From the NCBI GenBank assembly GCA_018971305.1, contig JAGXBC010000003.1:28325-92324 (forward strand): a stretch of 64,000 nt of DNA, written 5' to 3'. Each line of letters begins with the position of its first letter. Position 1 is the stretch's first letter. The DNA comes from Patescibacteria group bacterium. GTDB taxonomy: Bacteria; Patescibacteriota; Minisyncoccia; UBA6257; 2-01-FULL-56-20. The notes below the pieces were generated by a model, which saw only the letters and a list, made by a program, of their open reading frames with translations, did no database searches and was not told where the DNA came from. The translations under genes and the position numbers were made by a program. This document shows positions 1,165 to 59,505 of this stretch, one piece after another.

Positions 1165-2436
1165 ATGAATAAATTCCTCCAGATATTCAAGGTTAAAGAT
1201 TTGCGCGATAAGATCCTCATCGTCGCCGGTCTTTTAATTGTCTACAGGCTGTTCGCTGCTATTCCTATACCGGGAGTGGATGCCGCGCGTTTGCAGAATT
1301 ATTTCAACTCCAACCAATTCCTCGGGTTTCTAAATTTTTTCTCCGGTGGCGGACTTTCTAATTTATCCATCGTCATGTTGGGAGTGGGTCCGTACATTAC
1401 TGCCACGATTATCATGCAGCTCCTTACTATTATATTCCCTAAATTTAAGGAAATGTATTACGAAGAGGGTGCTCGCGGACAGGCCAAGTTTAATCAATAT
1501 TCACGGCTGATAACCGTGCCATTGGCTGTTGTTCAGGCCTACGGATTTCTTACTCTGCTTATCTCTCAGAACGTCATTGACCGGCCGGATCTTTTTAGTA
1601 TGATCCGTAACGTTCTTGTCATAACTGCCGGTTCTATGCTTGCTTTATGGCTTGGTGAACTTATCAGCGAACAAAAGGTTGGCAACGGAATTTCATTTAT
1701 AATCTTGGCTGGTATTGTGGCGCGATTGCCTTCAAGCATCGGCCTGGCTCTTGCCTCTTATACCCCGGGGCTTTTAACCACCTATCTGGGATTCATAATT
1801 ATTGCCGTGCTTTTGGTAGCCGGCGTGGTCTATTTGAACGAAGGTGAGAGGAAAATACCTGTGGCCTACGCAAGGCGGGTAAGAGGGATGAAAATGTACG
1901 GCGGTGCCCAGAGCTATTTGCCGCTTAAAGTTAACCAGGCGGGAATGATACCGCTTATTTTCGCCATCTCCGTTCTGTTATTCCCGCAATTTATCGCACA
2001 GGCGACATCTCTTATATCTCCAAGTTTAGCTCTGAAGGTAAATGGCTTGGTAGCTGGATTTTTGAACAATCAGTTGTATTACGGAATTTTCTATTTCGCC
2101 TTGGTTTTTATTTTCACCTACTTCTATACGGCAATTACCTTTAACCCCGAAGAGGTTTCCAGAAATCTTCAGAAAGGCGGCGGTTTCGTTCCCGGTATCC
2201 GGCCTGGTGAAGCGACCACCGAGTTTTTTTCCGGAATTGTGAATAGAATTACTTTCTGGGGCGCAATGTTTCTTGGATTGATTGCTGTTCTCCCGCTTCT
2301 TGTCCAACGTTTGACCGGCGTTCAAGTTCTGAACATTTCCGGCACAGCCCTTTTAATTGTCGTTGCCGTTGCCCTGGAAATTATGCGCGCCGTTGATTCG
2401 CAGCTGACGGTTAGGGAATACGAGGGCATTGAATAG
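1165..2436 (+). CDS. secY: preprotein translocase subunit SecY
   Basis: 423 aa, ten TM segments. Conserved SecY motifs and the standard position after rplO. Confidence 0.95.
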   Translation: MNKFLQIFKVKDLRDKILIVAGLLIVYRLFAAIPIPGVDAARLQNYFNSNQFLGFLNFFSGGGLSNLSIVMLGVGPYITATIIMQLLTIIFPKFKEMYYEEGARGQAKFNQYSRLITVPLAVVQAYGFLTLLISQNVIDRPDLFSMIRNVLVITAGSMLALWLGELISEQKVGNGISFIILAGIVARLPSSIGLALASYTPGLLTTYLGFIIIAVLLVAGVVYLNEGERKIPVAYARRVRGMKMYGGAQSYLPLKVNQAGMIPLIFAISVLLFPQFIAQATSLISPSLALKVNGLVAGFLNNQLYYGIFYFALVFIFTYFYTAITFNPEEVSRNLQKGGGFVPGIRPGEATTEFFSGIVNRITFWGAMFLGLIAVLPLLVQRLTGVQVLNISGTALLIVVAVALEIMRAVDSQLTVREYEGIE

Positions 2437-2482
2437 TATTTACTTTTTGGAATTTTACCCCACACGGTTTCTCGGAAAATAA

Positions 2483-2507
2483 GACCCGCCATAAAAATAA
2501 GGCGGGC
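2483..2507. terminator. GC hairpin (GACCCGCC..GGCGGGC) between convergent secY and the minus-strand ORF
   Basis: Stem CCCGCC/GGCGGG with an A-rich loop and A/T flanks on both sides. Confidence 0.5.
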
Positions 2508-2520
2508 TAAGAATTAGGCT

Positions 2521-2847
2521 TCAAAAACAAAAACGAAAAATATCTTTTTCTGCCGTATCAAGATGTTGTTTTGTTGCATCAACCAATTCTTTAAGGGTTG
2601 CGCCCTCGGCAAATGCTGTGTTATAAATCTTCCGTTGGTCAAAGCTGTAATGCGAGTGTACCGATGTAAAGTAACCGTCAGTCAGTTCAAATATTGCCAG
2701 AAACGTTATGTGGTCACTATATTCAAGTCCACCGGACTGGACCGTTCGTTTGATTAAATTCCTTTCAAATGGTGCCGATTGTAAAATCGCAGCCAAAAAT
2801 CTATCTCCATCCTTGCCAGGTAGGCCGTCGTAAGTAGTTAGAAACAT
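2521..2847 (-). CDS. hypothetical protein (108 aa) inserted on the opposite strand inside the spc ribosomal operon
   Basis: Clean ORF with protein-like composition. The overlapping plus-frame ORF is Cys-rich junk. No family recognised. Confidence 0.45.
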   Translation of the reverse strand: MFLTTYDGLPGKDGDRFLAAILQSAPFERNLIKRTVQSGGLEYSDHITFLAIFELTDGYFTSVHSHYSFDQRKIYNTAFAEGATLKELVDATKQHLDTAEKDIFRFCF

Positions 2848-2932
2848 AGTTTACCTCTCCTTGCAACGAATTGGTTTTCTACACCTCAATATATATGGAC
2901 TTTTATGATGTGTCAATGTTATTATTAACGGT

Positions 2933-3667
2933 ATGAAAAAATCTGCCATCATACTTTACGGTCCGCCGGGGTCGGGGAAAGGTACGCAGGCAAATCTTTT
3001 GGCCGGGAAATTGAACCTGATACATTTTGATTCCGGAAAGTTTCTTGAGGCCGTGGTACACGACCCTTTGCGCCAGAAGGAGAAATTTATTCAGAAAGAG
3101 AGGGAATTATTTGACACGGGGAAATTGCTGACCCCCAGTTTTGTTTTTAAAGAAGCTGCCAGAGCAGTAACAAAAATAGCCAAAGGCGGATTGGGTGTGG
3201 TTTTTAGCGGTGCGCCTCGCACCGTTTACGAGGCCAAAGGATTGATGCCCATACTTGAGCGCCTATATGGCAAGAAGAATATTTTTGTTTTTGAATTCAA
3301 GCTTCCACCAAATCATTCCGTGAAAAGAAACAGCACCCGTATGATATGCAGGTCGTGCGGTTATATGTTGCTCAATGCATATTATCCGAAAGTGAGAGCT
3401 AAGCATTGTCCGGTTTGCGGCGGGAATTTTTATAAGAGAACCCTCGATAATCCGAAGGTGATCAAGGTCAGGCTTAAAGAATATAAAGAAAGGACAATGC
3501 CGGCATTTACCTTGTTGCGTAAAATGGGATATAAAATCCATGCCATTGACGCCAAGATGGCTCCTTATAAGGTCTTGCACAAAGTTGTGAGCAATATTTT
3601 CCTGAGCGAGAAGAAGAAAGGGTTCATTGCTCCGGATAGCATTAATTTCTATCAGTTTTTGTTCTGA
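2933..3667 (+). CDS. adk: adenylate kinase (long form with zinc-ribbon LID)
   Basis: P-loop GPPGSGKGTQA. LID has CRSCG...CPVCGG. Standard position after secY. Confidence 0.9.
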   Translation: MKKSAIILYGPPGSGKGTQANLLAGKLNLIHFDSGKFLEAVVHDPLRQKEKFIQKERELFDTGKLLTPSFVFKEAARAVTKIAKGGLGVVFSGAPRTVYEAKGLMPILERLYGKKNIFVFEFKLPPNHSVKRNSTRMICRSCGYMLLNAYYPKVRAKHCPVCGGNFYKRTLDNPKVIKVRLKEYKERTMPAFTLLRKMGYKIHAIDAKMAPYKVLHKVVSNIFLSEKKKGFIAPDSINFYQFLF

Positions 3668-4431
3668 TGGGTTCTAATCTAAAAACCGAGGAGGAGATCA
3701 AAATAATGGCGGAGGCCGGCAGGAGATTGGCCCATGTTTTGCAGGTATTAAAGGAAGAAACCTCGCCGGGAATCACAACTGCTTACCTGGACCAGCTGGC
3801 GTTTAGATTAATCGGACAAGCGGATGCTAAACCGGCATTTTTGGGATATAAACCGGAGGGTGCCTCTAGGGCATATCCATATACCCTTTGTGCTTCTATA
3901 AACGAAGTTGTAGTTCATGGCCAGCCATCGGATTATATTATTCAAGATGGCGATTTAGTGAAGCTTGATCTCGGCCTGAAATTTAAAGGATTTTATGTTG
4001 ATTCGGCAGTGACCGTCGGCGTTGGTCGCATCGGACGGGAGGCAAAGAAACTGATTGAAGCAACAGAGGAATCGCTCGGTCTTGCTATTGAAGAAGCCCA
4101 TATCGGGAACACAATCGGGGACATCGGCCACACGGTTGAAAAATATATCACGGGCAAAAAATTCTCTGTTGTTAGATCGCTTACCGGCCACGGTATCGGC
4201 AGGCATTTGCACGAAGATCCGCAGGTTTTGAATTTCGGTAAGCCGGGCGGTGGAGAAGATATTGAAGTTGGCATGGTTTTGGCCATTGAGCCGATGGTGA
4301 CAATGGGTTCCGGTAGAACGGATACTTTGCCGGATGACAGCTTTATAACTGCCGACGGGTCGCTCGCGGCGCATTTTGAACATACGGTAGCGATAACAGA
4401 GGACGGGCCGATAGTGTTGACAAGGTTATAA
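3667..4431 (+). CDS. map: methionine aminopeptidase type I
   Basis: Typical MetAP-I blocks: VVHG, DLVKLDLG, HGIGRHLHEDP, LAIEPMV. Start overlaps the adk stop. Confidence 0.9.
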   Translation: MGSNLKTEEEIKIMAEAGRRLAHVLQVLKEETSPGITTAYLDQLAFRLIGQADAKPAFLGYKPEGASRAYPYTLCASINEVVVHGQPSDYIIQDGDLVKLDLGLKFKGFYVDSAVTVGVGRIGREAKKLIEATEESLGLAIEEAHIGNTIGDIGHTVEKYITGKKFSVVRSLTGHGIGRHLHEDPQVLNFGKPGGGEDIEVGMVLAIEPMVTMGSGRTDTLPDDSFITADGSLAAHFEHTVAITEDGPIVLTRL

Positions 4432-4491
4432 TTATATTCTATTTTATAGCTAGATAATATTTTTTCAGATTCTTAAAATAGGGAGGACGTG

Positions 4492-4923
4492 ATGAAAACA
4501 GGAATTTTTTCTGCTCTAGTTAGGGTGTTTCTGACCCCATTCTTGTATATTTGGTTGCGTCTTAAAATGTGTTACTACGGAGTTTTTTTCGATGAAATTT
4601 CATGTGCCACGAAATCCAAGAAATCGAATCGAATCACGATTATCAATTTATTGCGATTTCGCCGTTGCGATAAGGAAATAACCTACGAAAGAGTATGGAA
4701 AATCGTGTCTATACTGGGAAGATTTGCTTCCTGGGATGAAGTTGAAATTCTGGAAAAATCCGGCCGCTTGCCAAAAGATACTTATTCTGGAGTAGAAACT
4801 ATTAGGTTTCCGGTCGTAACGCACTATGACGTTGAGACCTGGGGTAAGATTGGACCCATTAGCCCGCTTTGGTATGGAATAGCGTGGCCGTGCGAAACAC
4901 GATTTGCTGTTGTTGTGAGATGA
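4492..4923 (+). CDS. hypothetical protein with hydrophobic N-terminus
   Basis: ATG at 4492 preceded by GGGAGGA 6 nt upstream. No family recognised. Confidence 0.45.
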   Translation: MKTGIFSALVRVFLTPFLYIWLRLKMCYYGVFFDEISCATKSKKSNRITIINLLRFRRCDKEITYERVWKIVSILGRFASWDEVEILEKSGRLPKDTYSGVETIRFPVVTHYDVETWGKIGPISPLWYGIAWPCETRFAVVVR

Positions 4924-4947
4924 GTATATGTTGGGTAAAACAGTTAA

Positions 4948-4979
4948 GACCGCTAGAATTTTAGCGGCCTTTTTGTTTT
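4948..4979 (+). terminator. rho-independent terminator
   Basis: CCGCTA-GAATTT-TAGCGG followed by CCTTTTTGTTTT. Confidence 0.6.
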
Positions 4980-4989
4980 GTGTTATAAT
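4979..4989 (+). promoter_or_regulatory. extended -10 element TGTTATAAT upstream of the GT2 gene
   Basis: TG-N-TATAAT sits 37 nt upstream of the ATG at 5026. Confidence 0.4.
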
Positions 4990-5025
4990 TTTTTTACTAC
5001 ATCCTACCATCTAACTTCTATTTTT

Positions 5026-5781
5026 ATGGCCCAACCATTTCTTTCCATAATTATCCCTGCCTATAACGAAGCCGAGCGCATACCTCATACGCTTATTGAT
5101 ATGGATAAAATTTTGAGCCGTTCCGAATATTCCTACGAGATTATGGTTATGAACGACGGTTCCACTGATAATACCGCGGAGATCGTTCGCAATATGGAAC
5201 ATGCCATCAAGAATCTGAAACTTATAGATAATTCGGAAAATAAAGGCAAGGGTGGTGTGGTGAGACAGGGAATGCTTCTTGCGCGCGGTAAATATCGTTT
5301 ATTTACAGACGCCGACAATTCCACTTCTGTTGATCACTTTAACGCCATGGTGCCTTTGTTCAAAGAAGGCTGTGATATTGTGATTTGCGATAGGGCATTG
5401 AAAGGAAGCAAGCTGGAACCGGCAGAGCCGATTTGGCGGCAAATTCCCGGTAAGCTCGGTAACTTGGTGATTCAGGCGCTTCTTCTGCCGGGAATTTGGG
5501 ATACGCAGTGCGGTTTTAAGGCCTTCACGGACGAAGCGGCCGAAAAAATATTTATGCAGAGCAAAATAAGCGGCTGGGGATTCGACGTAGAAATTTTGGC
5601 TTTGGCCAAGAAATTCGGCTATAAAATCAAAGAAATACCGGTTCATTGGGTAAATGCTGCCGGTTCCAAGCTTAAGCTATCGGCCTACTTGAAAGTTTTG
5701 CTGGAAACGTTTAAAATTCGCTGGTGGCTTTGGACTGGTGCTTATGGAATTAGCCAAGAGTCAACGAGCAATAGCCGATAA
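5026..5781 (+). CDS. family 2 glycosyltransferase (dolichol/polyprenol-phosphate sugar synthase-like)
   Basis: IIIPAYNEAERI, NDGSTDNT and the DAD motif (TDADNS) are the GT2 DxD signature. Confidence 0.8.
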   Translation: MAQPFLSIIIPAYNEAERIPHTLIDMDKILSRSEYSYEIMVMNDGSTDNTAEIVRNMEHAIKNLKLIDNSENKGKGGVVRQGMLLARGKYRLFTDADNSTSVDHFNAMVPLFKEGCDIVICDRALKGSKLEPAEPIWRQIPGKLGNLVIQALLLPGIWDTQCGFKAFTDEAAEKIFMQSKISGWGFDVEILALAKKFGYKIKEIPVHWVNAAGSKLKLSAYLKVLLETFKIRWWLWTGAYGISQESTSNSR

Positions 5782-5835
5782 ATAAGATACTAGTTCCGGC
5801 AGCTTGCTGTTTTGCAAGCGGCCATTTATAAAATA

Positions 5836-6294
5836 ATGGACAAATATTATCTAACAAAAGAACGCCTTGAAGAACTCAAGGTTGAGCTTGAAGGGCTCAA
5901 AAATGGGAAACGCCAGGAGGTTGCCGAGAAACTGAAGCATTCTAAGGAATACGGCGACCTTTCGGAAAATTCCGAATACGCCGAGGCGCGTGAAGAACAA
6001 GCGGTAGTGGAAAGCCGCATTTTTGAATTGGACGACCTTCTCAAAAAAGCTGTTATCATCAAAAAATCCGAGAGCGGAGATAAGATTGCCGTCGGTTCTT
6101 TGGTGACCGTCAAAAAGGGAGAAAAAATATTTGAGTATTCTCTCGTTGGTTCATACGAGGCGAAACCGGAGGAGGGAAAGATTTCCGACGAATCGCCATT
6201 GGGGCGCGCGTTCTTGGGGAAAAAAGTAGGGGACGATGTTACAGTAAAAACCCCTGCCGGGGAGGCAACATATCAGATTACGAAAATCGAATAG
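5836..6294 (+). CDS. greA: transcription elongation factor GreA
   Basis: N-terminal coiled coil LTKERLEELKVELEGLK...AEKLKHSKEYGDLSENSEYAEAREEQ and a C-terminal FKBP-like domain. Confidence 0.85.
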   Translation: MDKYYLTKERLEELKVELEGLKNGKRQEVAEKLKHSKEYGDLSENSEYAEAREEQAVVESRIFELDDLLKKAVIIKKSESGDKIAVGSLVTVKKGEKIFEYSLVGSYEAKPEEGKISDESPLGRAFLGKKVGDDVTVKTPAGEATYQITKIE

Positions 6295-6364
6295 CTATCT
6301 GCTAGAATCCGCGCTTGGACGCGGATTTTGAATTTTACAGTTAATTAGGCATAATTTATATGTT

Positions 6365-7813
6365 ATGCTTGACGACCTTATCGCCGAAAGGCGGAAAAAA
6401 TTGGAGAAGATAAAAGAAGCCGGACTTAATGCTTATCCGTCTTCTTCGGAGCGGACTATGGCGATCGCCGAGGCGCGAGAGAAATTCGCCGCACTTGAAA
6501 AAAGCGGCAAGAAGATTTCGCTTGCCGGGCGGCTTACTGCTATGCGCGACCAGGGCAATATTGTTTTTCTTGACCTTGCGGACGAAAGCGGAAAACTTCA
6601 GCTTGTTTTTAAAAAAGACTCTCTGCCGAATCTGGATTTTTATAGATCTGTTTTGGATATAGGTGATTTTGTCTCGGCAAGCGGCGTGCTTTTTAAAACC
6701 AAGAAAGGCGAGGAAAGTTTGGAAGCCAAAGACGTTAGGATCCTAGCCAAAGCAATCAGGCCTTTACCCAGCGAATGGTACGGCTTGGCCGACACCGAAG
6801 ACCGTCTGCGTGAGCGTTATCTGGACTTGCTTATAAACGAAGGAACGAAAGACATTTTCCGGAAGAAGGCGATTTTTTGGAAGACCTTCAGAGATTTTTT
6901 GGAAAAGGAAGGATTTTTGGAGGTGCAGTTGCCGGTTTTGGAATCGGTTCCGGGGGGTGCGGAAGCGGAACCGTTTAAAACTCACCACAACGCCTTGGAC
7001 ACGGATTTTTATTTGCGCATATCGCTGGAGTTGCCGCTTAAAAAGCTTTTGGTCGGTGGATTCGAAAAGGTTTTTGAAATAGGCCGGGTTTTCAGGAACG
7101 AAGGCATAGACAAGGAACACTTACAGGACTACACGCAGCTGGAATTTTATTGGGCTTATAGTGACTACAACGAACTGATGGTTTTCGTGGAGAAAATGTA
7201 TAAAGAAGTTATTAAGGCAACTTGCGGAACATTAAAAACCAAGTTTGGAGACAAAGAAATTGACTGGAGTAAAAAGTGGCCGAAGATTGATTATGTAGAA
7301 GCTTTCAAGAAGGCCAATGGATTGGATGCGACAGAAGCTTCGCGCGATGCGCTGTTAAAAAAAGCCAAGGAATTGAAGCTAGAGGTAGAGAAGAATGCCG
7401 GCAAGGGACGGCTAATAGATCTCATCTATAAAAAAACCGTGCGGCCGAATCTGGTTCAGCCCTGTTTCCTTATCAATCCTCCGGTAGAGATAGAACCTCT
7501 TGCTAAGCGTAAGGAAGGCAACCCGAAAGTCGTGGAGAGGATGCAGGTGATGGCCGGTGGTACCGAATTGGGCAAAGGATTTTCGGAATTGAACGACCCG
7601 GCTGACCAGCGCGCGCGCTTTGAGGAACAGGAAAAAGCCCGAGCGGCAGGGGATAAAGAGGCGCAGAGATTGGACGAAGATTTCGTGGAGGCGTTGGAAT
7701 ACGGCATGCCCCCTGCAGCAGGCTTCGGCGTTTCCGAGCGTTTGTTCTCTGTGCTTATGGATAAACCGGTTCGCGAAACCGTTATTTTCCCATTGATGCG
7801 TCCGAAGAAATGA
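6365..7813 (+). CDS. lysS: lysyl-tRNA synthetase, class II
   Basis: N-terminal OB fold. Class II motifs FRNEGID..H..EFT and GGTELGKGFSEL. Confidence 0.9.
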   Translation: MLDDLIAERRKKLEKIKEAGLNAYPSSSERTMAIAEAREKFAALEKSGKKISLAGRLTAMRDQGNIVFLDLADESGKLQLVFKKDSLPNLDFYRSVLDIGDFVSASGVLFKTKKGEESLEAKDVRILAKAIRPLPSEWYGLADTEDRLRERYLDLLINEGTKDIFRKKAIFWKTFRDFLEKEGFLEVQLPVLESVPGGAEAEPFKTHHNALDTDFYLRISLELPLKKLLVGGFEKVFEIGRVFRNEGIDKEHLQDYTQLEFYWAYSDYNELMVFVEKMYKEVIKATCGTLKTKFGDKEIDWSKKWPKIDYVEAFKKANGLDATEASRDALLKKAKELKLEVEKNAGKGRLIDLIYKKTVRPNLVQPCFLINPPVEIEPLAKRKEGNPKVVERMQVMAGGTELGKGFSELNDPADQRARFEEQEKARAAGDKEAQRLDEDFVEALEYGMPPAAGFGVSERLFSVLMDKPVRETVIFPLMRPKK

Positions 7814-8217
7814 AGAAAGTTTTAGTATTCGGTGTTTTTGATGGTGTGCACGAAGGCCATCGGTCCTTTTTTAAGGAAGCGAAAACGCACGGTGACTACT
7901 TGATTGCCGCCATTGCTCAAGACCATATTGTTGAGCACTTAAAAGGCCGCTTACCGCAGACGAATTTGGCAGACCGTATTGCCGACCTGCAGGCAGAAGA
8001 CGGTGTTGACCAGGTTGTTTTGGGTGATTCCGAAATAGGCACTTACGAAGTTGTCAAAAAATACCGTCCGGAAGTTATCGCTCTCGGCTATGACCAAGAA
8101 GCCTTAAAAGATGATTTGGAAAGCCATAAAAAAGAATTTGACTGGAAGCCGAAGATTGTTGTGCTTAACTCCTACGAGCCGAATAAATATAAGAGCAGTC
8201 TAATTAATAGAAAGTAG
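7810..8217 (+). CDS. cytidylyltransferase-like nucleotidyltransferase (FAD synthetase / FMN adenylyltransferase-like)
   Basis: HxGH motif GVFDGVHEGH of the nucleotidyltransferase superfamily. 135 aa. Start overlaps the lysS stop (ATGA). Confidence 0.6.
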   Translation: MKKVLVFGVFDGVHEGHRSFFKEAKTHGDYLIAAIAQDHIVEHLKGRLPQTNLADRIADLQAEDGVDQVVLGDSEIGTYEVVKKYRPEVIALGYDQEALKDDLESHKKEFDWKPKIVVLNSYEPNKYKSSLINRK

Positions 8218-11572: not shown

Positions 11573-11585
11573 GCCACCTTAGCTC
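11573..11585 (+). repeat. 13-nt duplicate of the tRNA-Thr(TGT) 5' end (GCCACCTTAGCTC)
   Basis: Exact copy 46 nt upstream of the intact tRNA 5' end. Confidence 0.5.
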
Positions 11586-11618
11586 TCCGCCATCTGGTGG
11601 AAGCAGGAGTTACTGAAT

Positions 11619-11723: not shown

Positions 11724-11795
11724 GCCGGAGTAGTTCAGTGGCAGAACACTTTCATGGTAAGAAAGGGGTCGGGAGTTCGATTCTCCCCTCCGGCT
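11724..11795 (+). tRNA. tRNA-Thr (anticodon GGT)
   Basis: Acceptor GCCGGAG/CTCCGGC, anticodon loop ATGGTAA, T-loop TTCGATT. Confidence 0.75.
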
Positions 11796-11870: not shown

Positions 11871-12113
11871 ATGTACTACGTTTACATATTAAAATCCAGT
11901 AAAACTGGCAAATATTATATCGGTTATACCAGCGACTTGAAGAAAAGATTGAATTATCACAATAATGGGCGAACGCCTTCATTACGAAAGCATATCCCTC
12001 TTGGGGTTGCCAGGATTGAGGAATTCCGCTATTATGATGATGCTCGGAAACGAGAGCGACAAATTAAAAGTTATAAATCTGGCGAAGCTTTTAAAAGGTT
12101 ACTAAAGTCGTGA
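11871..12113 (+). CDS. GIY-YIG nuclease family protein (80 aa)
   Basis: YYVYILKS..GKYYIGYTSDLKKRLNYHN is the canonical GIY-YIG motif. Confidence 0.75.
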   Translation: MYYVYILKSSKTGKYYIGYTSDLKKRLNYHNNGRTPSLRKHIPLGVARIEEFRYYDDARKRERQIKSYKSGEAFKRLLKS

Positions 12114-12417: not shown

Positions 12418-12488
12418 GGGGGCATCGTTCAGTGGTAGGACAGCGGTCTCCAAAACCGCTAACGTGGGTTCGATTCCTACTGCCCCCG
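12418..12488 (+). tRNA. tRNA-Trp (anticodon CCA)
   Basis: Acceptor GGGGGCA/TGCCCCC, anticodon loop CTCCAAA. Confidence 0.8.
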
Positions 12489-12493
12489 CTAGC

Positions 12494-12527: not shown

Positions 12528-12656
12528 GTATTGAGTACGAGGAATCGAACAGGAAAGGGGTCGGGAAAACTCTAGTTTTCCCGTGGCGGAAATATTAAAA
12601 CCGAGGGGTTTTAAAAGCGAGCGTAGCGAGCGCGTGAGATTCCCTTGGGCCATAGG

Positions 12657-12670
12657 CCTACTGCCCCCGC
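12657..12670 (+). repeat. 14-nt duplicate of the tRNA-Trp 3' end (CCTACTGCCCCCGC)
   Basis: Exact copy of the tRNA's 3' acceptor/T-stem region, about 170 nt downstream of the gene. Confidence 0.5.
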
Positions 12671-14301: not shown

Positions 14302-14316
14302 CGTTTTTATATGGTA

Positions 14317-14344
14317 TTGCTTTTTAGATAGGATATGGTATAAT
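14317..14344 (+). promoter_or_regulatory. sigma70-like promoter (-35 TTGCTT, 16-nt spacer, -10 TATAAT)
   Basis: Consensus -10 hexamer at 14339-14344. Confidence 0.45.
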
Positions 14345-14351
14345 GAGACGC

Positions 14352-14650
14352 AGATGTTGCAAATAAATTTTGTTTAGAGGAGAAAAACTATGGTAGTGGA
14401 AGTAATGACAGTGAAAGTTGGGGTAGTCGTGAAAAGCGCGAGGTTCTCGTTGGATGTGGCGAGCGTCGACCAGAACACATTAAGTTTCTCCCATAAAGTC
14501 TGCGGTGGTTGCGGGGCCAGGTTTGGCTCCGCGGAACGATTCCATATCCACGGGAAGAGCGTTTATAAGAATACGGCCTTCCCGGATCGAAAGCATTAAT
14601 TTCTCCTGCGTGGCGCCTCATCGTGAGGCGCCACATTTCTTTTTTTTGGA
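14352..14650 (+). other. promoter-to-terminator transcript of about 300 nt: small CxxC ORF (14390-14599, 69 aa, SD AGGAGA) or an ncRNA
   Basis: Bounded by the promoter above and a strong terminator. The antisense frame gives Arg-rich junk. Confidence 0.3.
14610..14649 (+). terminator. rho-independent terminator GTGGCGCCTCA-TCG-TGAGGCGCCAC + U-tract
   Basis: 11-bp perfect stem followed by TTTCTTTTTTTT. Confidence 0.8.
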
Positions 14651-14678: not shown

Positions 14679-14765
14679 GGTGGGGTGGCTGAGTGGCCGA
14701 AGGCGCCGCACTCGAAATGCGGTATACTCGAAAGGGTATCGTGAGTTCGAATCTCACCCCCACCG
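14679..14765 (+). tRNA. tRNA-Ser (anticodon CGA)
   Basis: Acceptor GGTGGGG/CCCCACC, anticodon loop CTCGAAA, long variable arm. Confidence 0.8.
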
Positions 14766-14848
14766 CACTCAGTACTTTTTATCGGCAGACGCGAGTGCAT
14801 AAAAATTATTGTTGAACGTTAAATATTTCAAGGTTGGCGACATAGTTA

Positions 14849-15469
14849 ATGACAAAAAATAAAAACATGACTCCCATTGAGGCGGAAAAAATCATAGAAA
14901 CATTTCACCAATCCATAATGGATTTGCGCCCCAATGCTATTGTGCAGTCAGCGAAAGAGTTGCCTTATACTTCTGCCAGGATCAAATTTGCACACTTTAT
15001 TTATGGGGAGCACTTAATTAAAAATGGTTTTTATATCGAAGGAAAAACGCCGGAGGAAACATCACAATTATTTGAAAAAAAATATCAAGAATTGATGGAG
15101 TCTTACGGACTGATTGACTCACTTTTTAGCGAGGAACCGGAGCCAATAAATATTGAATATAGAAAATACTTAGCAGGATTAAAAAATGGCGTAATTACTA
15201 ATTTTCACATACCAAATCCGTTTGGTGAATGCGGGCCGGTAAATGAATATCATAACTTCGTCGGTGAATGTTGGTTTTTAGAGCATCGTACAAATCTATT
15301 CAGCGATAATCCATTGGGAGCTTTTATTTATGAAGCTATCCGCAATAAGGCAATACAGGAAAAAGATACAAAAACACTTATCGAAATTGTTAATACCGCC
15401 AAAACTAGAGCCGTTGTTTTTCCAGGCAGAAGAACCAACAAGAAATCAATTTTTATTGAGCCAAATTAA
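14849..15469 (+). CDS. hypothetical protein (206 aa), first gene of an AT-rich two-gene cassette
   Basis: Clean ORF about 36% GC against a flank near 47%. No recognisable family. Confidence 0.5.
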   Translation: MTKNKNMTPIEAEKIIETFHQSIMDLRPNAIVQSAKELPYTSARIKFAHFIYGEHLIKNGFYIEGKTPEETSQLFEKKYQELMESYGLIDSLFSEEPEPINIEYRKYLAGLKNGVITNFHIPNPFGECGPVNEYHNFVGECWFLEHRTNLFSDNPLGAFIYEAIRNKAIQEKDTKTLIEIVNTAKTRAVVFPGRRTNKKSIFIEPN

Positions 15470-15472
15470 AAT

Positions 15473-16012
15473 ATGGGCGAAGAAGAAATCATAAAATTGA
15501 TAAAATCTAAATCTCAAGCCGTCGCCGAAAACTTACTTTTAACCCCCGAACTTACCAAAATCAAAGAACAGATCGAGAAATTTTTAGACCAGAACCTAAA
15601 AGGCGATGGTTTGTTATCGTTACGTTATCGTAAATTTAAACTTCCTAACAAGCAGAGGACCTTGTGGTCGGACACAAGCGGATTTCCAATTGGTGGCGAA
15701 AATTGGATAAAGCCATATATAGATTTTTTCGAGCAGTATATAACGGAAAAGAAAATCGTAAATCGGCTTGAAGATGAAAAACTTTGGGTTGAATCAAGAA
15801 CGCGGGGCAATGAGCAGCATCTATTGATTGGCGACAAGCAGAACGATGGGCAAAAAGTTCATTTGGTTTTTGGCGAAACCGGAGAAATAAGAATTGATAA
15901 AAAAGATCAACCCCCGGCCGAAGTTTTTAGAAAGGTAGAATCGGTATTAACTAAATCGGACGGGGACACCGTAAAATCGACATTGGAGTTCTTCAGAGAT
16001 AAGGTTGATTAA
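15473..16012 (+). CDS. hypothetical protein (179 aa), second gene of the cassette
   Basis: Starts 3 nt after the upstream stop. AT-rich, no recognisable family. Confidence 0.5.
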   Translation: MGEEEIIKLIKSKSQAVAENLLLTPELTKIKEQIEKFLDQNLKGDGLLSLRYRKFKLPNKQRTLWSDTSGFPIGGENWIKPYIDFFEQYITEKKIVNRLEDEKLWVESRTRGNEQHLLIGDKQNDGQKVHLVFGETGEIRIDKKDQPPAEVFRKVESVLTKSDGDTVKSTLEFFRDKVD

Positions 16013-16260
16013 AATTTGTCGCCAAGCCCTAAAGGTGTCGCGACTCGGAGGCCTCAGTGAACCGGCAGAAGGCATGCTAAAATACCCTTATAAACTTGCT
16101 ACTGGGGGCACTTAACTCCAGTGGCCCGCCAAGACAATTTATCATTATCGGATGAAGGGCCGGTAATTGACAAACTGATGGTATTTTGCAAAACTCCAGT
16201 CAGTTCTGGTGGGTTTATATTGGTACAGACCCCCCAATCTGATAGGGAGGTATAGAGATA

Positions 16261-16608
16261 ATGGTAAAAATATTCAGAGAGTTCTTCGGGCCTCGTCTGA
16301 ATGGGATTTTGGGATTTCTTTTGCGCTCGGTAGTCCACGGTATCGTGCTGAATATATTTTGGGGATGGTTTATCATTCCTTATTTCCCCTTGCCAAAATT
16401 GCCGCTGCCAGTCGCGATGGGAATTTATCTGATGATAGCTTTCGTTAAGCGCGACTATAGAAGCGATCTCATGAAACATTCCGAAATGATTGATTATGAC
16501 AACGAAGAAGCGGTTAAGCGGCTCTACGGGATAATGATGATGCGTGCCCTGTCCGCGTTAACGGCCGGGTGGCTGATCCATTTATTATGCCTGAAATTTA
16601 TCCGCTAA
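16261..16608 (+). CDS. small integral membrane protein (hypothetical)
   Basis: SD AGGGAGG 8 nt upstream. Three predicted TM helices. Preferred over the overlapping minus ORF 16099-16479. Confidence 0.45.
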   Translation: MVKIFREFFGPRLNGILGFLLRSVVHGIVLNIFWGWFIIPYFPLPKLPLPVAMGIYLMIAFVKRDYRSDLMKHSEMIDYDNEEAVKRLYGIMMMRALSALTAGWLIHLLCLKFIR

Positions 16609-16676
16609 CAAAAAATATGACAGCCTATACAAGATTTGCATCGGAAAACATTATTAATTCGCTAATATTTTTTACC

Positions 16677-16708
16677 GGCGGCCCGCGATAACGGCCGCTT
16701 TTTATTTT
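16677..16708 (+). terminator. rho-independent terminator GGCGGCC-loop-GGCCGC + TTTTTATTTT
   Basis: Seen in sequence downstream of the membrane-protein gene. Confidence 0.6.
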
Positions 16709-16744
16709 CTGGTAATCGCCGGTGGGATTTTATAAACTTTAGTA

Positions 16745-17251
16745 ATGCAGGAATATCTAAGCGATGCGGTTGTTTTGGATAAGGTTCAGAATGGCGATAT
16801 GGACAGCAGGTTTTTTATGTTTACCAAGAAATTCGGTAAGCTGGCGGCCAAGGCGAAAAGCGCAAGGAAAATAACTTCCAAGCTTGCCGGACATTTGCAG
16901 CCGGGGAATTTGGTGAGCGCGCGTTTTATAGAAAGGAACGGTTTGCAGGTGGTTGATGCCTTGAAGCGGAACAAATTAAACATAGGGCTTACCGAGTTAT
17001 ATTTTTTAAACAAATTACTTCACGAAGCCGAGCCGGAACAGCGTCTTTGGCACCTACTCGTTTCGGAACGCTTTGATTGGATTGAAATTCTTAGGATATT
17101 GGGTTGGGACGCCGATGAAACATCGTGTCAAAACTGCAACACCGGAAAACCGGTGGCATTTGACATTGGGGTACAGGAATTTTTGTGTGAAAATTGTGCT
17201 ATAAAAACACCGGCGGATAAGTTATTATATATAGTAAATGGCAAAGGATAG
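16745..17251 (+). CDS. recO: DNA repair protein RecO (short form)
   Basis: N-terminal OB-fold pattern AVVLDKV..GDMDSRFFMFTKKFGKL..KAKSARK. C-terminal CxxC...CxxC zinc motif (CQNCN...CENCA). Confidence 0.55.
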   Translation: MQEYLSDAVVLDKVQNGDMDSRFFMFTKKFGKLAAKAKSARKITSKLAGHLQPGNLVSARFIERNGLQVVDALKRNKLNIGLTELYFLNKLLHEAEPEQRLWHLLVSERFDWIEILRILGWDADETSCQNCNTGKPVAFDIGVQEFLCENCAIKTPADKLLYIVNGKG

Positions 17252-19067
17252 CGGTAATATCGGTTATAAATCTCCCTGGGAGGAATCTTCGGAAACGTCT
17301 TCGGAGAAATCAAAGATTAGATTGGAGCCGCCCAAGAAACATGGGGAGTGGCACATATTTATTATCGGTGGCATAGTTTTTGTCTTACTAGCCGCCGGCG
17401 CCTATTATTTATATTCTTTAAGCCCCCGGGGCGCGGACGTAGGCATGCGCTTCATTAATCCGAGCCAGGTTTTGCTCGGAGAGCCGTTTACGCTTACGGC
17501 ATCATATTCCAATTATTCTAATTATGTTTTGAAAGATGTTTCTCTGTCTCTCGTTTTGCCGGACGGTGTTTATTTAACGGGACAGTCACAGGATCAAAGG
17601 GTTATTGAACAAACCTTGGGTGATTTGGGTCCGGGTAGCGTAAGCCAGCAAGATTTTAATTTAATAATTACGGATGGAAGCGATAGTGTTAAGAATATTA
17701 CCGCCAAACTTAAATACTCAGCTCCCAATTCCAGTGCCCAATTTGAATACGACGCTCAGGCGGATGTGCTTGTCGGTCAGCCCGCTGTCAGCCTGAACAT
17801 GACGGTGCCCCAAGGAGTTTTTAACGGCCAGGATTTTGATATCAAGATCGGATATAGCAATAACACCAATAAAGATTTTAATAATCTCCGCCTTAAACTT
17901 GATTACCCTCCCATTTTCCAGTTTACGCGAAGCACGACCCAGTCTGACGGCAACGGCAATAATTCCTGGGATTTGGGGACGCTCGCTCCAGGTTCTGCCG
18001 GAACTATCTCGGTTACGGGTAATATTCTTGGTCCGGAAAAAGCATTCGTAAGTTTTAACGCGGGACTTTCTGCCGACTATCTTGGGCAGACATATCAAAT
18101 AAATTCCCAGAGCGCGAACACCTCCATTTCTTCCACTCCGCTTTCATTGTCGGTAAATATGTCCGGAGGCGGGGCGGGGGAAGCAGCAAAACCCGGTGAT
18201 TTCCTTCTTTACACTCTTAATTATCAGAACAATTCCGACGTTGTTATGCAAAATGCGGTAATAACTGCGAATCCAAGCGGTGATATGCTCGATCTTTCAA
18301 CTATCCAGACCCAAGGAAGTTTTAGCTCCTCAAATAATACTGTAACTTGGGCTGGAGCCAATACCCCGCAGCTTTTAAATATTGCCCCGGGCCAATCGGG
18401 TTCAGTGAGCTTCAAAGTAAAAGTTAAGAATGCCTATCCGATACGACTTATAAGTGATAAAAATTATACGCTCAAAGTCGCGGCGCAGATAGGATCTCCG
18501 ACCGTGCCCACGGGCACGAATGCTTCAAAGACAATTGCCCTTGCCAATCTTGAAAGCAAGGTTGTCGGGAACGTAGTATTATCGTCCACGTCTTATTGGC
18601 GCGATGCCGCTTCCGGAATTTTAAATAGCGGTCCGTATCCGCCGCGGGACAATCAGCCTACCGACTATACGGTTCATTGGGATATCATAAATTACGCAAC
18701 AGACGTGACGAACGTAACTGTTTCGGCGTCCTTGCCATATGGTACGCGTCTTACCGGGGCAATAAAGAGCAATATGGATACCGAGCCATCGTACGATGCG
18801 AATTCCGGTGTCGTAACATGGCAGATTCCTTTCCTGCCTGCGACAAAAGGCATTGTTGGCGCTCCGGCAGAAGCCATCTTCCAAATAGAAAATACTCCTT
18901 CTACTAATCAGGTTGGACAGACGATTCAGATTTTGGGGACGACGAATATTCAATGGACGGATTCTTTTACGGGCCAGCAGTTCCAGTCTTCGGCGGTGGC
19001 ATTAGATACCAATTTGCCGTATGATACAACCGTAGCAGGAGTTCAGAATAAAAAAGTCCAGCCATAA
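17238..19067 (+). CDS. membrane-anchored extracellular protein with repeated beta-sandwich (DUF11-like) modules
   Basis: One TM near the N-terminus. Repeated 'LGPG..QDF / LAPG..GTISVTG / IAPGQSGSVSFKV' modules typical of DUF11 repeats. Confidence 0.55.
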   Translation: MAKDSGNIGYKSPWEESSETSSEKSKIRLEPPKKHGEWHIFIIGGIVFVLLAAGAYYLYSLSPRGADVGMRFINPSQVLLGEPFTLTASYSNYSNYVLKDVSLSLVLPDGVYLTGQSQDQRVIEQTLGDLGPGSVSQQDFNLIITDGSDSVKNITAKLKYSAPNSSAQFEYDAQADVLVGQPAVSLNMTVPQGVFNGQDFDIKIGYSNNTNKDFNNLRLKLDYPPIFQFTRSTTQSDGNGNNSWDLGTLAPGSAGTISVTGNILGPEKAFVSFNAGLSADYLGQTYQINSQSANTSISSTPLSLSVNMSGGGAGEAAKPGDFLLYTLNYQNNSDVVMQNAVITANPSGDMLDLSTIQTQGSFSSSNNTVTWAGANTPQLLNIAPGQSGSVSFKVKVKNAYPIRLISDKNYTLKVAAQIGSPTVPTGTNASKTIALANLESKVVGNVVLSSTSYWRDAASGILNSGPYPPRDNQPTDYTVHWDIINYATDVTNVTVSASLPYGTRLTGAIKSNMDTEPSYDANSGVVTWQIPFLPATKGIVGAPAEAIFQIENTPSTNQVGQTIQILGTTNIQWTDSFTGQQFQSSAVALDTNLPYDTTVAGVQNKKVQP

Positions 19068-37998: not shown

Positions 37999-40537
37999 TT
38001 GGTTAGAATGAAAAACTTGTTGCTGATAGTGTTTGTTTTGGTGATAGCAATAATAGTATTAGTTCCCCAGTCCAAAGCTGCAGCAGTCCTAATTCCTAAT
38101 CAACCCAATATCGGTAGTCTGTTGGGATCTGGAACCGTTGTCAGTCAGCCCATCGGCGCAGGTTTTTTCGGATACAATCAGCGGTCTTGATTTTAATATA
38201 GTAAATCTAAATGGTCTTATAGCCTCTTGGTTCAAGGTTGATCTTTGTACATATCCATCCAGTTCACCTAGTAATGATTGTGGGCAAGAAAATCAGATTG
38301 GCATTACCGAAGGCCTTACGCCAGTAGGTGTTGGCATACGCCATGTTAGTTTTAATCAACCAATTACTATAAATCCTAATGATTTTGTAGTTTTGCGCTA
38401 TTGCGCTGCCTTTAATAATACTACTTATGATTGTGTGGGATCTGGCAACGGCACCTTTACTTTTTCGGGGATCACCAGCACCAATCCTGGTTGGTATCCA
38501 TGGCCGCAGTATTTATATGTGGTTTGGCAGCATGCGTCTCTATCTAATTTACAGCAATTTGAATCTGATGGAGTGACTGTTATTCCATCTGGGGGCGCTA
38601 TTCCAGAAAATACTGTGGTTCTGGCTGCAAATGTTGTGGGTGCGGCAGACAATACGGTACAACTACAGGTTGAAGTGGAACCAAATAATATTCCATTTTC
38701 TGGGATTCCAACCTTAAGCAGCTCCTTTGTTCTTTCTGGGGATATTACAACGATAACCGTGCCTAATATTCTAGATGGTCAATATCATTGGCAAGCTCGC
38801 GCAGTGGATTCTGAAGGAAATACGTCGCCCTGGAGTTCGGGCAGTAATTTTGTTATTGATACCATGCCTCCGACAATATCTTATAATCGGCCATCTCCAT
38901 ATTATATAATTAACACATCCGCCATATTTTCTTTTTATGCAAATGATAATGGAGGAACCGGAATTAATGATCTTTCAGCATTGCTTGATGGGAAATTATT
39001 CGACTTTGGTCCTACCGTCGGATCTGTTTTAAACCTTGATCTTTCTGTTGGTACGCACACTATTATTATCAAAGCGAAGGATTATGCGGGCAATATTACT
39101 ACGTCCGATACGCTTACATATACTGTGCCAGCAGCAATGGTTGCCAATGGATCTCAGCTAACCGATCAATCTTATATAGGTGGTACCATAGGAACTTCAA
39201 ATGGAATTGTTGCGCAACCCATCGGTGCAGGATTCTCAGATACCGTCAGCGGACTTGATTTCTATGTACCAAGCCTGAACAACCTTATAGCCTCTTGGTT
39301 CAAGGTTGATCTTTGTACATATCCATCCAGTTCACCTAGTAATGATTGTGGGCAAGAAAATCAGATCGGCATTACCGAAGGTCGTGTGTCCGTTGGCACT
39401 GGTATTCGACACGTCAGTTTTACTCAGCCGCTTAATATTTCACCTGACAACTTTGTTATTTTGAGGTACTGCGCTGCCTTCAATGATATAAATTACAGTT
39501 GCATACCCAGTGGCAATGGTAGTTTTACTTTCGGTGGTGTTACCAGCACCAATCCTGGTTGGTATCCATGGTCGCAGTATTTATATATCAAATGGCAGCA
39601 CACTACGATAAATGGTTTGGCACAATATGAAGCAGATGGCATAACACCGCTTGGAACTAGCGCAACAAACACAATAGTGTTGTCCGGAAATGTTGTCGGT
39701 TCTATTGATCCAGTTCAACTCCAAGTTGAAATAGAGCCAAGTGGTGCCGCTTTTATTGATCAACTCACGGCAAGTAGTTCGTTTGTTTCATCTGGGAGTA
39801 CTGCCACCATTACGATATCTGATGTGGCTGATGGGGATTATCATTGGCAAGCTCGTGCGATGGATTCGGGGGGAATTGCATCTCCTTGGTTGCCATTTAG
39901 TGCCGTGCCAACAAACACAGACTTTGTTATAGATACGACTCCACCTGTAATTGCACACACCGCTATCGAACCCCAGTACATTCTTAATGGCACTCCACTA
40001 CAGTTTCAATTTTCTGCAACGGATAATGGTGGTGTTGGACTTTCAAATCTTGTAGCCACACTAGACGGTGTTGAATTTTCGTCGGGAGATTTTATAAATT
40101 TTACTCAAGTCGGTGTACACACAATTATAATTACTGCAAAAGATGCTGTCGGAAATATTTCTACATCAACTAATACTTATGATGTGGCTTATAATTTCGG
40201 AGGATTTCTCCCTCCAATACAAACTGATGGTAGTGGCGTGTATAAGTTGAAGAGGTCTTTAGCTGTTAAATTCCAACTCACAGATGCCAATGGTCAATAT
40301 GTAGACAATGCGGTTGCACGTTTATTAGTGACAAAAGTAGAAGACGGTATTTTAGGAACTGTTCCGATAGAATTATCAACATCTACTACGGACATCGGCG
40401 GATTATTCAAATACGACCCAATTAGTAATCAGTATGTTTACAGGTTAGACACCGGATCTTTAACCACTGGGACATGGCAATTGACAGCAGTACTAGACGA
40501 TGGCACGAGTTACTCTATATTAATATCATTAAGGTAA
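37999..40537 (+). CDS. secreted tandem-repeat surface protein, interrupted by a +1 frameshift at a T6 tract (38163-38168)
   Basis: The N-terminal signal-peptide ORF (37999-38190) ends ...SQPIGAGFFGYNQRS*. Removing one T gives ...QPIGAGFSDTISGLDF, which continues into ORF 38138-40537 and matches the second internal repeat (IVAQPIGAGFSDTVSGLDF). Confidence 0.6.
38216..38313 (+). repeat. 98-nt core of a 1,068-bp intragenic tandem duplication (copy 1; copy 2 at 39284-39381, one mismatch)
   Basis: Near-identical DNA in both copies. The flanking protein repeats (about 356 aa each) are otherwise about 60% identical. Confidence 0.75.
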
Positions 40538-59097: not shown

Positions 59098-59505
59098 ATG
59101 AGTATTATTGATGATATAAAGTCAGCAGCAGAAGTTCTTCGTAAAGCAGACAATATAGAACTCTATCAAAAATTACTAACAGCACAGAAACAAGCGTTAG
59201 AAATTATGGAGGAGAATAGAAATCTAAAAGAAGAGAATCGTAATCTACTAAAGAAAATCAAGATAAAAGGGGATATGTATCTACGTAACGATGCATATTG
59301 GGGTAGTAAAGACGGGAAAGAAGAAGGACCATTCTGTACAAGATGTCTCAACGTGGAATCTATCCCAGTCTTACTTCATCAACAAGGAAACCCAGCATAT
59401 TATCAATGCCCAAACTGTAAATCCTCGATTAAGGCAAGACCAGAATTAGATCAACCAATAGTAGCTAAAAAATTTAATCCATTTAATAACGGATATGATT
59501 TATAA
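59098..59505 (+). CDS. AT-rich hypothetical coiled-coil + zinc-ribbon protein inserted between grpE and dnaK
   Basis: About 33% GC against flanks near 48%. CTRC...CPNC zinc ribbon. Confidence 0.5.
   Translation: MSIIDDIKSAAEVLRKADNIELYQKLLTAQKQALEIMEENRNLKEENRNLLKKIKIKGDMYLRNDAYWGSKDGKEEGPFCTRCLNVESIPVLLHQQGNPAYYQCPNCKSSIKARPELDQPIVAKKFNPFNNGYDL

Follow-up and report, generated by a model that had tools for sequence, protein, structure and literature searches.

Whether two small, adjacent genes of no recognised family, lying just behind a serine tRNA gene, form a single two-gene system is the question raised by a 64-kb stretch of a metagenome-assembled genome (MAG) of Patescibacteria (candidate phyla radiation, CPR). 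We call the whole stretch the window, and all coordinates are window positions unless a locus label precedes them. The + strand carries, in order, tRNA-Ser(CGA), open reading frame (ORF) A, ORF B, a 248-nt spacer, ORF C, a hairpin with a U-run, and RecO. The original prediction, made from the letters alone, took A and B for a tightly coupled pair with the footprint of a horizontally acquired toxin-antitoxin, abortive-infection or other defence module. Here, we find no support for A-B as a conserved two-gene toxin-antitoxin or abortive-infection module, because the two genes co-occur nowhere else and the other partners of A are unrelated to B. The locus is probably a relic islet at a tRNA-Ser hot spot, in which two unrelated and independently moving accessory genes have come to lie side by side without being a cognate two-gene system.

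The two genes themselves are as predicted, on the + strand at 14849 to 15469 (206 aa) and 15473 to 16012 (179 aa) with 3 nt between them. The start of A is best placed further in, however. Each of the 38 A homologues in the alignment starts with the residue that corresponds to Met-7, the second in-frame Met (MTPxEA...), and DNA similarity of A to other loci sets in at 14855 to 14867, so the true start is most likely 14867 rather than the in-frame upstream ATG at 14849. ORF A then runs from 14867 to 15469, encodes a soluble, all-alpha protein of 200 aa, and lies 100 nt from the tRNA-Ser gene (14679 to 14766; found by ARAGORN, and Rfam tRNA at 56.1 bits). Adjacency to tRNA-Ser was predicted correctly, but the gap to 14849 is 82 nt and not 84 nt. 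The tRNA-Ser(CGA) gene is presumed to be the integration target, with the islet starting directly at its 3' side.

That A and B are not a pair follows from where else they occur. Beyond this genome, A was present at 34 loci in about 19 distinct contexts (from assemblies, GTDB representatives and Joint Genome Institute [JGI] metagenomes) and B at nine loci in five distinct contexts. Collected loci carrying A or B bear L numbers, L001 to L003 being identical copies of the A-B sequence of the window. By tblastn and blastn, and from gene tables as well for L052 and L053, B was found in 0 of the 34 other A loci (L004 to L007, L015 to L019 and L020 to L044 included), and A in 0 of the nine other B loci (L008 to L014, L052 and L053 included). 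The tight coupling that had been proposed did not hold up: A and B are adjacent in this genome only, and the sole junctions are the three identical copies. Within the window, similarity to A-type DNA and similarity to B-type DNA meet at 15468 to 15470. Elsewhere, A is followed by unrelated genes of 235 aa, 239 aa or 40+114 aa, or by nothing; its downstream partners of 235, 239 and 114 aa show no relation to B, and hidden homology between B and the 235- and 239-aa partners was rejected at an hhalign probability of 1% or less. A and B compared with each other also gave 1% or less. In L017, A lies 11 nt after tRNA-Ser(gga) with nothing else on that strand. B likewise has a company of its own, as it is preceded by a 107-aa gene in L008 and in L011 to L014, and it carries N-terminal extensions in L009 and L053 (the L053 variant is 282 aa). 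The idea that A always travels with a small membrane protein was also dropped, as one was found in 16 of 21 contexts when the chance expectation is 0.735, which is no enrichment. We note that NCBI contig JAGWOS010000002.1 (L001 1-318), a public contig of the same organism, begins within ORF A at codon 96, which suggests an assembly break at the gene, of the kind to be expected if the sequence is repeated or varies within the community.

A and B each represent a rare family that is under strong purifying selection, occurs in many unrelated contexts and keeps a donor-like low G+C fraction (GC). For A, we found 60 homologue clusters of 55 to 78% identity, and a profile search of 1.84 billion representative proteins returned just 85 clusters. 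Only 5 of 185,579 GTDB species representatives carry A, one of them a 458-kb contig labelled Verrucomicrobiia. For B, 97 homologue clusters were found, of up to 91% identity beyond one that is 100% identical to NCBI KGJ89_01675 (GCA_028870835.1). Most carriers of A and B are Patescibacteria, and A is found as well on contigs of 0.51 to 0.64 GC that are clearly not Patescibacteria. Both alignments hold many invariant positions, including an invariant TGEIR motif in B. The ratio of nonsynonymous to synonymous substitution (dN/dS) is 0.09 to 0.13 for A against other loci and 0.05 for B against L011, in each case with synonymous sites near saturation. The genes that flank A and B differ in almost every locus.

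Composition agrees with a foreign origin. A and B were said to be more AT-rich than their surroundings, and this was borne out. Together they have a GC of 0.369, whereas the window averages 0.456 (z = -2.8). A GC this low is reached by just 0.14% of segments of equal length, and none of them in the 64 kb is poorer in GC than A+B. GC at third codon positions (GC3) is 0.325 in A and 0.408 in B, and the mean of 60 ORFs is 0.47 (standard deviation, 0.062). The low GC is confined to A and B, the spacer (0.472) and ORF C (0.448) being ordinary. Across loci, gene GC is independent of host-locus GC: A, at 0.36 in the window, has about 0.30 to 0.41 in host loci of 0.29 to 0.64, and B has 0.32 to 0.39 in host loci of 0.38 to 0.45.

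The two families are often found directly 3' of tRNA genes, often behind a gene of the XRE family, and sometimes near a large serine recombinase. Three different anticodons are represented among the tRNA-Ser genes beside A: cga in the window, tga at L004/5 and gga at L017. Three further loci have A near tRNA-Gln(ctg). The tRNA-Ser genes of L024 (cga) and L025 (tga) instead adjoin a recombinase gene at its 3' end, about 3 kb from A. B follows tRNA-Ala in L011 and tRNA-Val/Glu in L008. In about six different contexts, A is preceded, often at only 2 to 3 nt, by an XRE-family helix-turn-helix (HTH) gene, and such a gene also precedes the 282-aa B variant of L053. The A module of L023 and L024/25, of the order HTH-(membrane protein)-A-(236-aa)-(139-145-aa), adjoins a large serine recombinase (Resolvase + Recombinase + Zn_ribbon_recom), and in L024/25 the 3' end of the recombinase gene runs into tRNA-Ser. 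The large serine recombinase of L053, about 1 kb upstream of HTH-B282, is a different one (26% identity), and L045 has another about 3.3 kb from a short A relative, with HTH_17 and DUF5681 genes between. Horizontal acquisition of undescribed families at a tRNA hot spot, a part of the original prediction, is thus supported.

As a kind, then, the locus is a small tRNA-linked accessory islet, and what is new is the two orphan families that build it. It resembles tRNA-linked islets with large serine recombinases in its position 3' of a tRNA gene, its atypical composition, its patchy distribution and its accessory cargo, and related A loci carry a recombinase of Resolvase, Recombinase and Zn_ribbon domains abutting tRNA-Ser. 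Unlike such islets, the window copy has neither an integrase nor direct repeats of attachment (att) sites, its cargo families are undescribed, and the related elements have paired long inverted repeats in place of simple attL/attR. We propose that one or two such elements would have inserted 3' of tRNA-Ser(CGA) and that recombinase and regulator genes would then have been lost, leaving A and B as cargo, each useful alone. Transcription would read through from the tRNA-Ser unit over A, B and perhaps C and end at a hairpin at 16677 to 16708, and B may be translationally coupled to A across the 3-nt gap. The hairpin, followed by a U-run, resembles an intrinsic terminator (7-bp G+C stem, 9-nt loop, UUUUUAUUUU tail), folds as had been described, and is the first terminator-like signal on the + strand after tRNA-Ser. 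A scan of that strand from 14767 to 16677 found no other, hence none between A and B. Read-through is probable because neither a promoter-like site nor a terminator was found on the + strand between tRNA-Ser and the hairpin.

What A and B do for the cell is hinted at by their neighbours more than by their sequences. Neither has a significant match in Pfam, NCBIfam, PADLOC or PHROGs, and the absence of a recognised family, noted in the original prediction, stands. A known defence system was not recovered either: A, B and C were without significant PADLOC match, in that A and C had none in PADLOC-DB 2.0 and B had only capH at a nonsignificant E value of 0.027. The AlphaFold model of A has seven helices (predicted local distance difference test [pLDDT], 90.4), and Foldseek found no match for it in PDB or BFVD. 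The model of B has a helical N-terminal half and a four-stranded sheet (pLDDT, 87.7), and no PDB match was found by fold (Foldseek) or by sequence profile. Profile searches of PDB sequences with A and B returned nothing usable. Moreover, A and B have no detectable DNA-binding domain and no likeness to a known toxin or antitoxin. A phage origin was considered and set aside, as neither protein has a relative in IMG/VR or a PHROG and the fold of A has no counterpart in BFVD. DNA mimicry of the anti-restriction kind was also rejected, since median isoelectric points of 5.7 (A) and 6.0 (B) are not strongly acidic.

Two enzymatic identities were entertained for A and abandoned. A is all-helical, and in its close subfamily H49 is invariant and R44 near-invariant (R-I-K-Y/F-A-H), so that R44-x4-H49 fits the Rx4-6H motif of HEPN RNases such as HepT and Abi toxins. 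The wider A superfamily consists of helical proteins of 125 to 140 aa that match only the first 124 residues of A, however, and in these relatives both R and H are replaced. Foldseek gave no structural support: HepT structures appeared low in the list for A with probabilities of 0.04 to 0.08 and template modelling (TM) scores of 0.16 to 0.26, which are not significant. A had no HEPN match in Pfam. A weak PDB profile match to SseI (E = 0.018) raised a papain-like deamidase of the SseI/PMT-C3 type, with C128 of A apparently aligned with the catalytic Cys of SseI. Across the family that position is C, I, T, V or L, and the model of A is all-alpha. We saw no conserved catalytic pattern outside the close A subfamily. 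An A-like domain of 125 aa is fused to a response-regulator receiver (REC) domain according to Pfam; inspection by eye adds fusions to a winged helix like that of FtsK-gamma and to membrane segments at the C terminus. The modular proteins are P0206, P0223, P0237 and P0239. A is more likely to be a nonenzymatic helical sensor or adaptor domain than an enzyme.

The neighbours of A point towards conflict. Next to A in other loci, PADLOC profiles identified a DpnI-type mREase_II (1.6e-113), an HKD+Snf2 helicase (4e-123) and the defence-associated reverse transcriptase (DRT) RT_UG13b (3e-138); NYN and DUF4145 genes are also found there, and by eye we read VapBC-like pairs in L017 and a Fic protein in L035. 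A PemK toxin gene adjoins B in L011. Serine recombinase genes mark defence loci, but the published association concerns small serine recombinases (PMC13552941), and those found here are large. In its company of defence genes, recombinases and XRE regulators, A resembles the ORFans of defence islands and the "moron" genes of prophages. Unlike them, A and B have no known defence domain and no IMG/VR match. Each protein alone might act in conflicts between cell and phage or mobile element, whether in defence, exclusion or counter-defence, and we regard such independent single-protein roles as plausible, at somewhat short of even odds. The predicted defence footprint therefore survives in part: A does lie near known defence genes and recombinases elsewhere, but a two-gene toxin-antitoxin or abortive-infection module was not found.

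Inverted repeats of 110 to 170 nt that are 97 to 100% complementary enclose the HTH-A module of L015, L023 and L024/25 (L024 1-4627; L023 1788-6177; L015 1-2544). A repeat core of about 90 nt is invariant in six of six arms, whereas coding DNA between these loci is only about 82 to 88% identical. The dyad GGGCGGGCAAAAA-N23-TTTTTGCCCGCCC is found within every arm, exactly twice in each locus. Relative to recombinases that are 90% identical, the module points one way in L023 and the other way in L024, and thus the segment has indeed inverted. Most of the recombinase gene lies between a second pair of long inverted repeats, of which one arm falls within the 3' end of the coding sequence and the other ahead of the start (L024 2770-2903 / 4387-4520; L023 1839-1935 / 3421-3517; L053 2609-2759 / 4034-4184), and this arrangement is common to two recombinases that are only 26% identical. 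Neither structure is present in the window, where a search for the L015/L023/L024 repeat recombination site gave no match above chance. By eye, the recombinase reading frames enter tRNA or tRNA-like sequence at their 3' ends. L024 and L025 are 99.4% identical over 4.6 kb, yet ARAGORN assigns anticodon cga to one tRNA-Ser (L024 4515-4603) and tga to the other (L025 4508-4597); both contigs stop no more than about 25 nt past the tRNA, which is what an integration junction varying within the population would give.

These loci recall the invertible segments of Hin, Gin, Cin and Pin, in that an HTH-A module lies between inverted repeats near a serine recombinase in L015, L023 and L024/25 and that two related elements (L023 and L024) hold it in opposite orientations. 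The differences are considerable, as the recombinase is of about 500 aa and of integrase type, the repeats measure 110 to 170 nt instead of about 26 bp, a second repeat pair surrounds the recombinase gene, and the window has no such feature at all. Tentatively, A genes, and possibly B genes, may be cargo of an undescribed element class found so far mainly in Patescibacteria, with a large, integrase-type serine recombinase beside a tRNA gene and two neighbouring pairs of very highly conserved inverted repeats of about 100 to 170 nt, one pair around the recombinase gene and the other around an XRE-controlled cargo module. The module would flip as a phase-variable switch of accessory or defence functions, the window islet would be a decayed and locked copy, and A would be a single-protein conflict factor with a new fold. 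We think this extended reading possible but doubtful.

Several observations weigh against the relic-islet reading and the roles proposed with it. The window has no recombinase gene and no XRE gene. An att-type copy of the tRNA-Ser end was sought downstream of the block and not found, as the best local alignment of tRNA-Ser with 14767 to 17400 scored within the range of shuffled sequence and revealed no att direct repeat, and no homologue of the long inverted repeats is present. With all four features missing from the window, the step from element to relic is drawn from other loci only. The lack of a promoter-like site of the islet's own, given above for the + strand between tRNA-Ser and the hairpin, belongs here too, as do two housekeeping-like neighbourhoods: in L052, B sits between FemAB and Mur ligase genes, and in L007, A sits beside genes of deoxynucleotide (dNTP) metabolism. 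That L007 block (1658-7862), in which A stands at the end of a run of ThyA, dihydrofolate reductase (DHFR), dCTP deaminase, dCMP deaminase, thymidylate kinase and thymidine kinase genes with a weak ThyX-like match among them, resembles the nucleotide-metabolism clusters of phages or mobile elements. The defence role is the weakest step, since it is guilt by association at hot spots that collect cargo of all kinds and since IMG/VR held no relative of A or B. Finally, the 3-nt spacing suggests that A and B are at least coexpressed here, and a functional link between them could have evolved secondarily.

How else might the locus be explained? A cognate toxin-antitoxin or abortive-infection module, one product being the effector and the other its neutraliser or sensor, would account for two small genes of unassigned function and similarly low GC that lie 3 nt apart on one strand at a tRNA hot spot, and the position of A only 2 to 3 nt after XRE-HTH genes elsewhere recalls the layout of antitoxin and toxin. 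In these respects the locus is like a type II toxin-antitoxin system. It is unlike one in that the A-B pairing is not conserved, A is frequently alone, and neither protein has homology to a toxin or antitoxin, matches a PADLOC model or contains a detectable DNA-binding domain; a toxin could not survive in the partnerless arrangement of L017. The absence of B from all 34 other A loci and of A from all nine other B loci largely refutes this explanation, and we consider it very unlikely. In a softer version, A and B arrived separately and have since become a functional unit of this lineage, an operon tRNA-Ser-A-B(-C) with cooperating products. The precise juxtaposition of stop and start at the similarity boundary of 15468 to 15470 would suit it, as would the absence of a terminator between the genes, the identical A-B junction in three independent assemblies or samples, and the intactness of both genes under purifying selection. 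The three samples may come from the same organism, however, each family works in many contexts without the other, and no sign of an interaction was seen. We hold a new operon of this kind to be unlikely.

Nor do the genes behave as housekeeping genes of a Patescibacteria lineage that are merely AT-rich. Strong purifying selection, the predominance of Patescibacteria among carriers and the location of some copies among core genes are what such genes would show, but the idea is already contradicted by the presence of A in only 5 of 185,579 species representatives, by flanking genes that change in almost every locus, by a gene GC that does not follow that of the host locus, and by copies of A on non-Patescibacteria contigs (0.51 to 0.64 GC) and in a Verrucomicrobiia-labelled MAG. 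Conserved synteny with normal composition, which would have marked them as housekeeping genes, was not what we found, and we give this explanation almost no credence. The main alternative for A itself is that it serves the element rather than the host, in regulation or maintenance (as a partner of the XRE repressor, a recombination-directionality factor or an anti-repressor, for example) with no part in defence. Inside the repeat-bracketed module, A often follows an XRE-HTH gene immediately and has a serine recombinase as its neighbour, its relatives are fused to REC and, by eye, to an FtsK-gamma-like DNA-binding domain, and it looks nonenzymatic. The alternative is weakened by loci without recombinase or XRE gene (the window, L007, L016 to L019 and L034 to L040), where A is intact and under selection although nothing is there for such a factor to act on, and we judge it improbable. 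Thus, we return to a relic islet of two independent accessory genes as the explanation that we favour.

ORF B (15473 to 16012), a second undescribed mobile family unrelated to A, is followed by the spacer (16013 to 16260), in which we ruled out an RNA gene on the grounds of a fold z score of -1.27 and the absence of any Rfam match worth noting at E of 10 or less. ORF C (16261 to 16608, + strand) encodes a small membrane protein of 115 aa and has the strong Shine-Dalgarno box that was predicted, GGGAGG, 10 nt ahead of its ATG. Three transmembrane segments had been proposed; about three hydrophobic segments are apparent by eye, and the match to phrog_2169 "membrane protein" (E = 1.4e-7) agrees with a membrane location. 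C and the terminator had also been said to close the block, and the terminator is there, with RecO beginning after it at 16745 (+ strand). Membership of C is unproven, as its GC is ordinary and its single other homologue (70% identity) lies in an unrelated context, which also made C unusable as a synteny anchor. We treat it as an uncertain member of the islet. A perfect 9-nt inverted repeat, with TTGGCGACA at 14834 to 14842 and TGTCGCCAA at 16017 to 16025, just past the stop codon of B, brackets A+B exactly. It has no similarity to the long inverted repeats of L015/L023/L024, and it may be due to chance. Our own rough estimate, which no tool produced, puts the chance of such a repeat within 30 nt of both borders at about 0.003.

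Other features of the neighbourhood deserve mention in their own right. The tRNA cluster contains the predicted GIY-YIG gene (11871 to 12113). The partial tRNA-end duplications that had been reported exist, but they concern tRNA-Thr and tRNA-Trp, and the end of tRNA-Ser has no copy downstream of the block. The final 14 nt of tRNA-Trp reappear exactly 181 nt further on (12476-12489 / 12657-12670), a 14-nt piece of tRNA-Thr(ggt) is repeated at 12553 (11761-11774 / 12553-12566), and 46 nt upstream of tRNA-Thr(tgt) there is a copy of its 5' end (11573 to 11592). These copies look like scars of past integration or excision. Between tRNA-Ala and tRNA-Ser, the segment at 14303 to 14650 (+ strand) has a TATAAT-like box at about 14338 to 14343 and, at 14610 to 14634, a strong terminator hairpin with a U-run behind it. 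Its fold scores better than that of shuffled sequence (z = -3.33), no Rfam family matches the segment even at E of 10 or less, and it is a candidate structured noncoding RNA of about 300 nt. Elsewhere in the window, the ORFs at 59098 to 59505 and 38138 to 40537 have unusually low GC3 (0.237 and 0.309) and could be foreign as well.

Patescibacteria have tiny genomes, and little is known of their mobile elements and defences. Even these bacteria keep small foreign islets at tRNA genes. A and B are two conserved and confidently folded families without an annotated relative or a structural neighbour by Foldseek (in PDB for both and in BFVD for A), and both are reasonable candidates for screens of defence or counter-defence. 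Dropping the pair matters in practice, as each gene is to be judged alone and not only as one half of a toxin-antitoxin couple. Ultimately, the recombinase elements with invertible cargo modules are perhaps a more interesting lead than the window islet itself.

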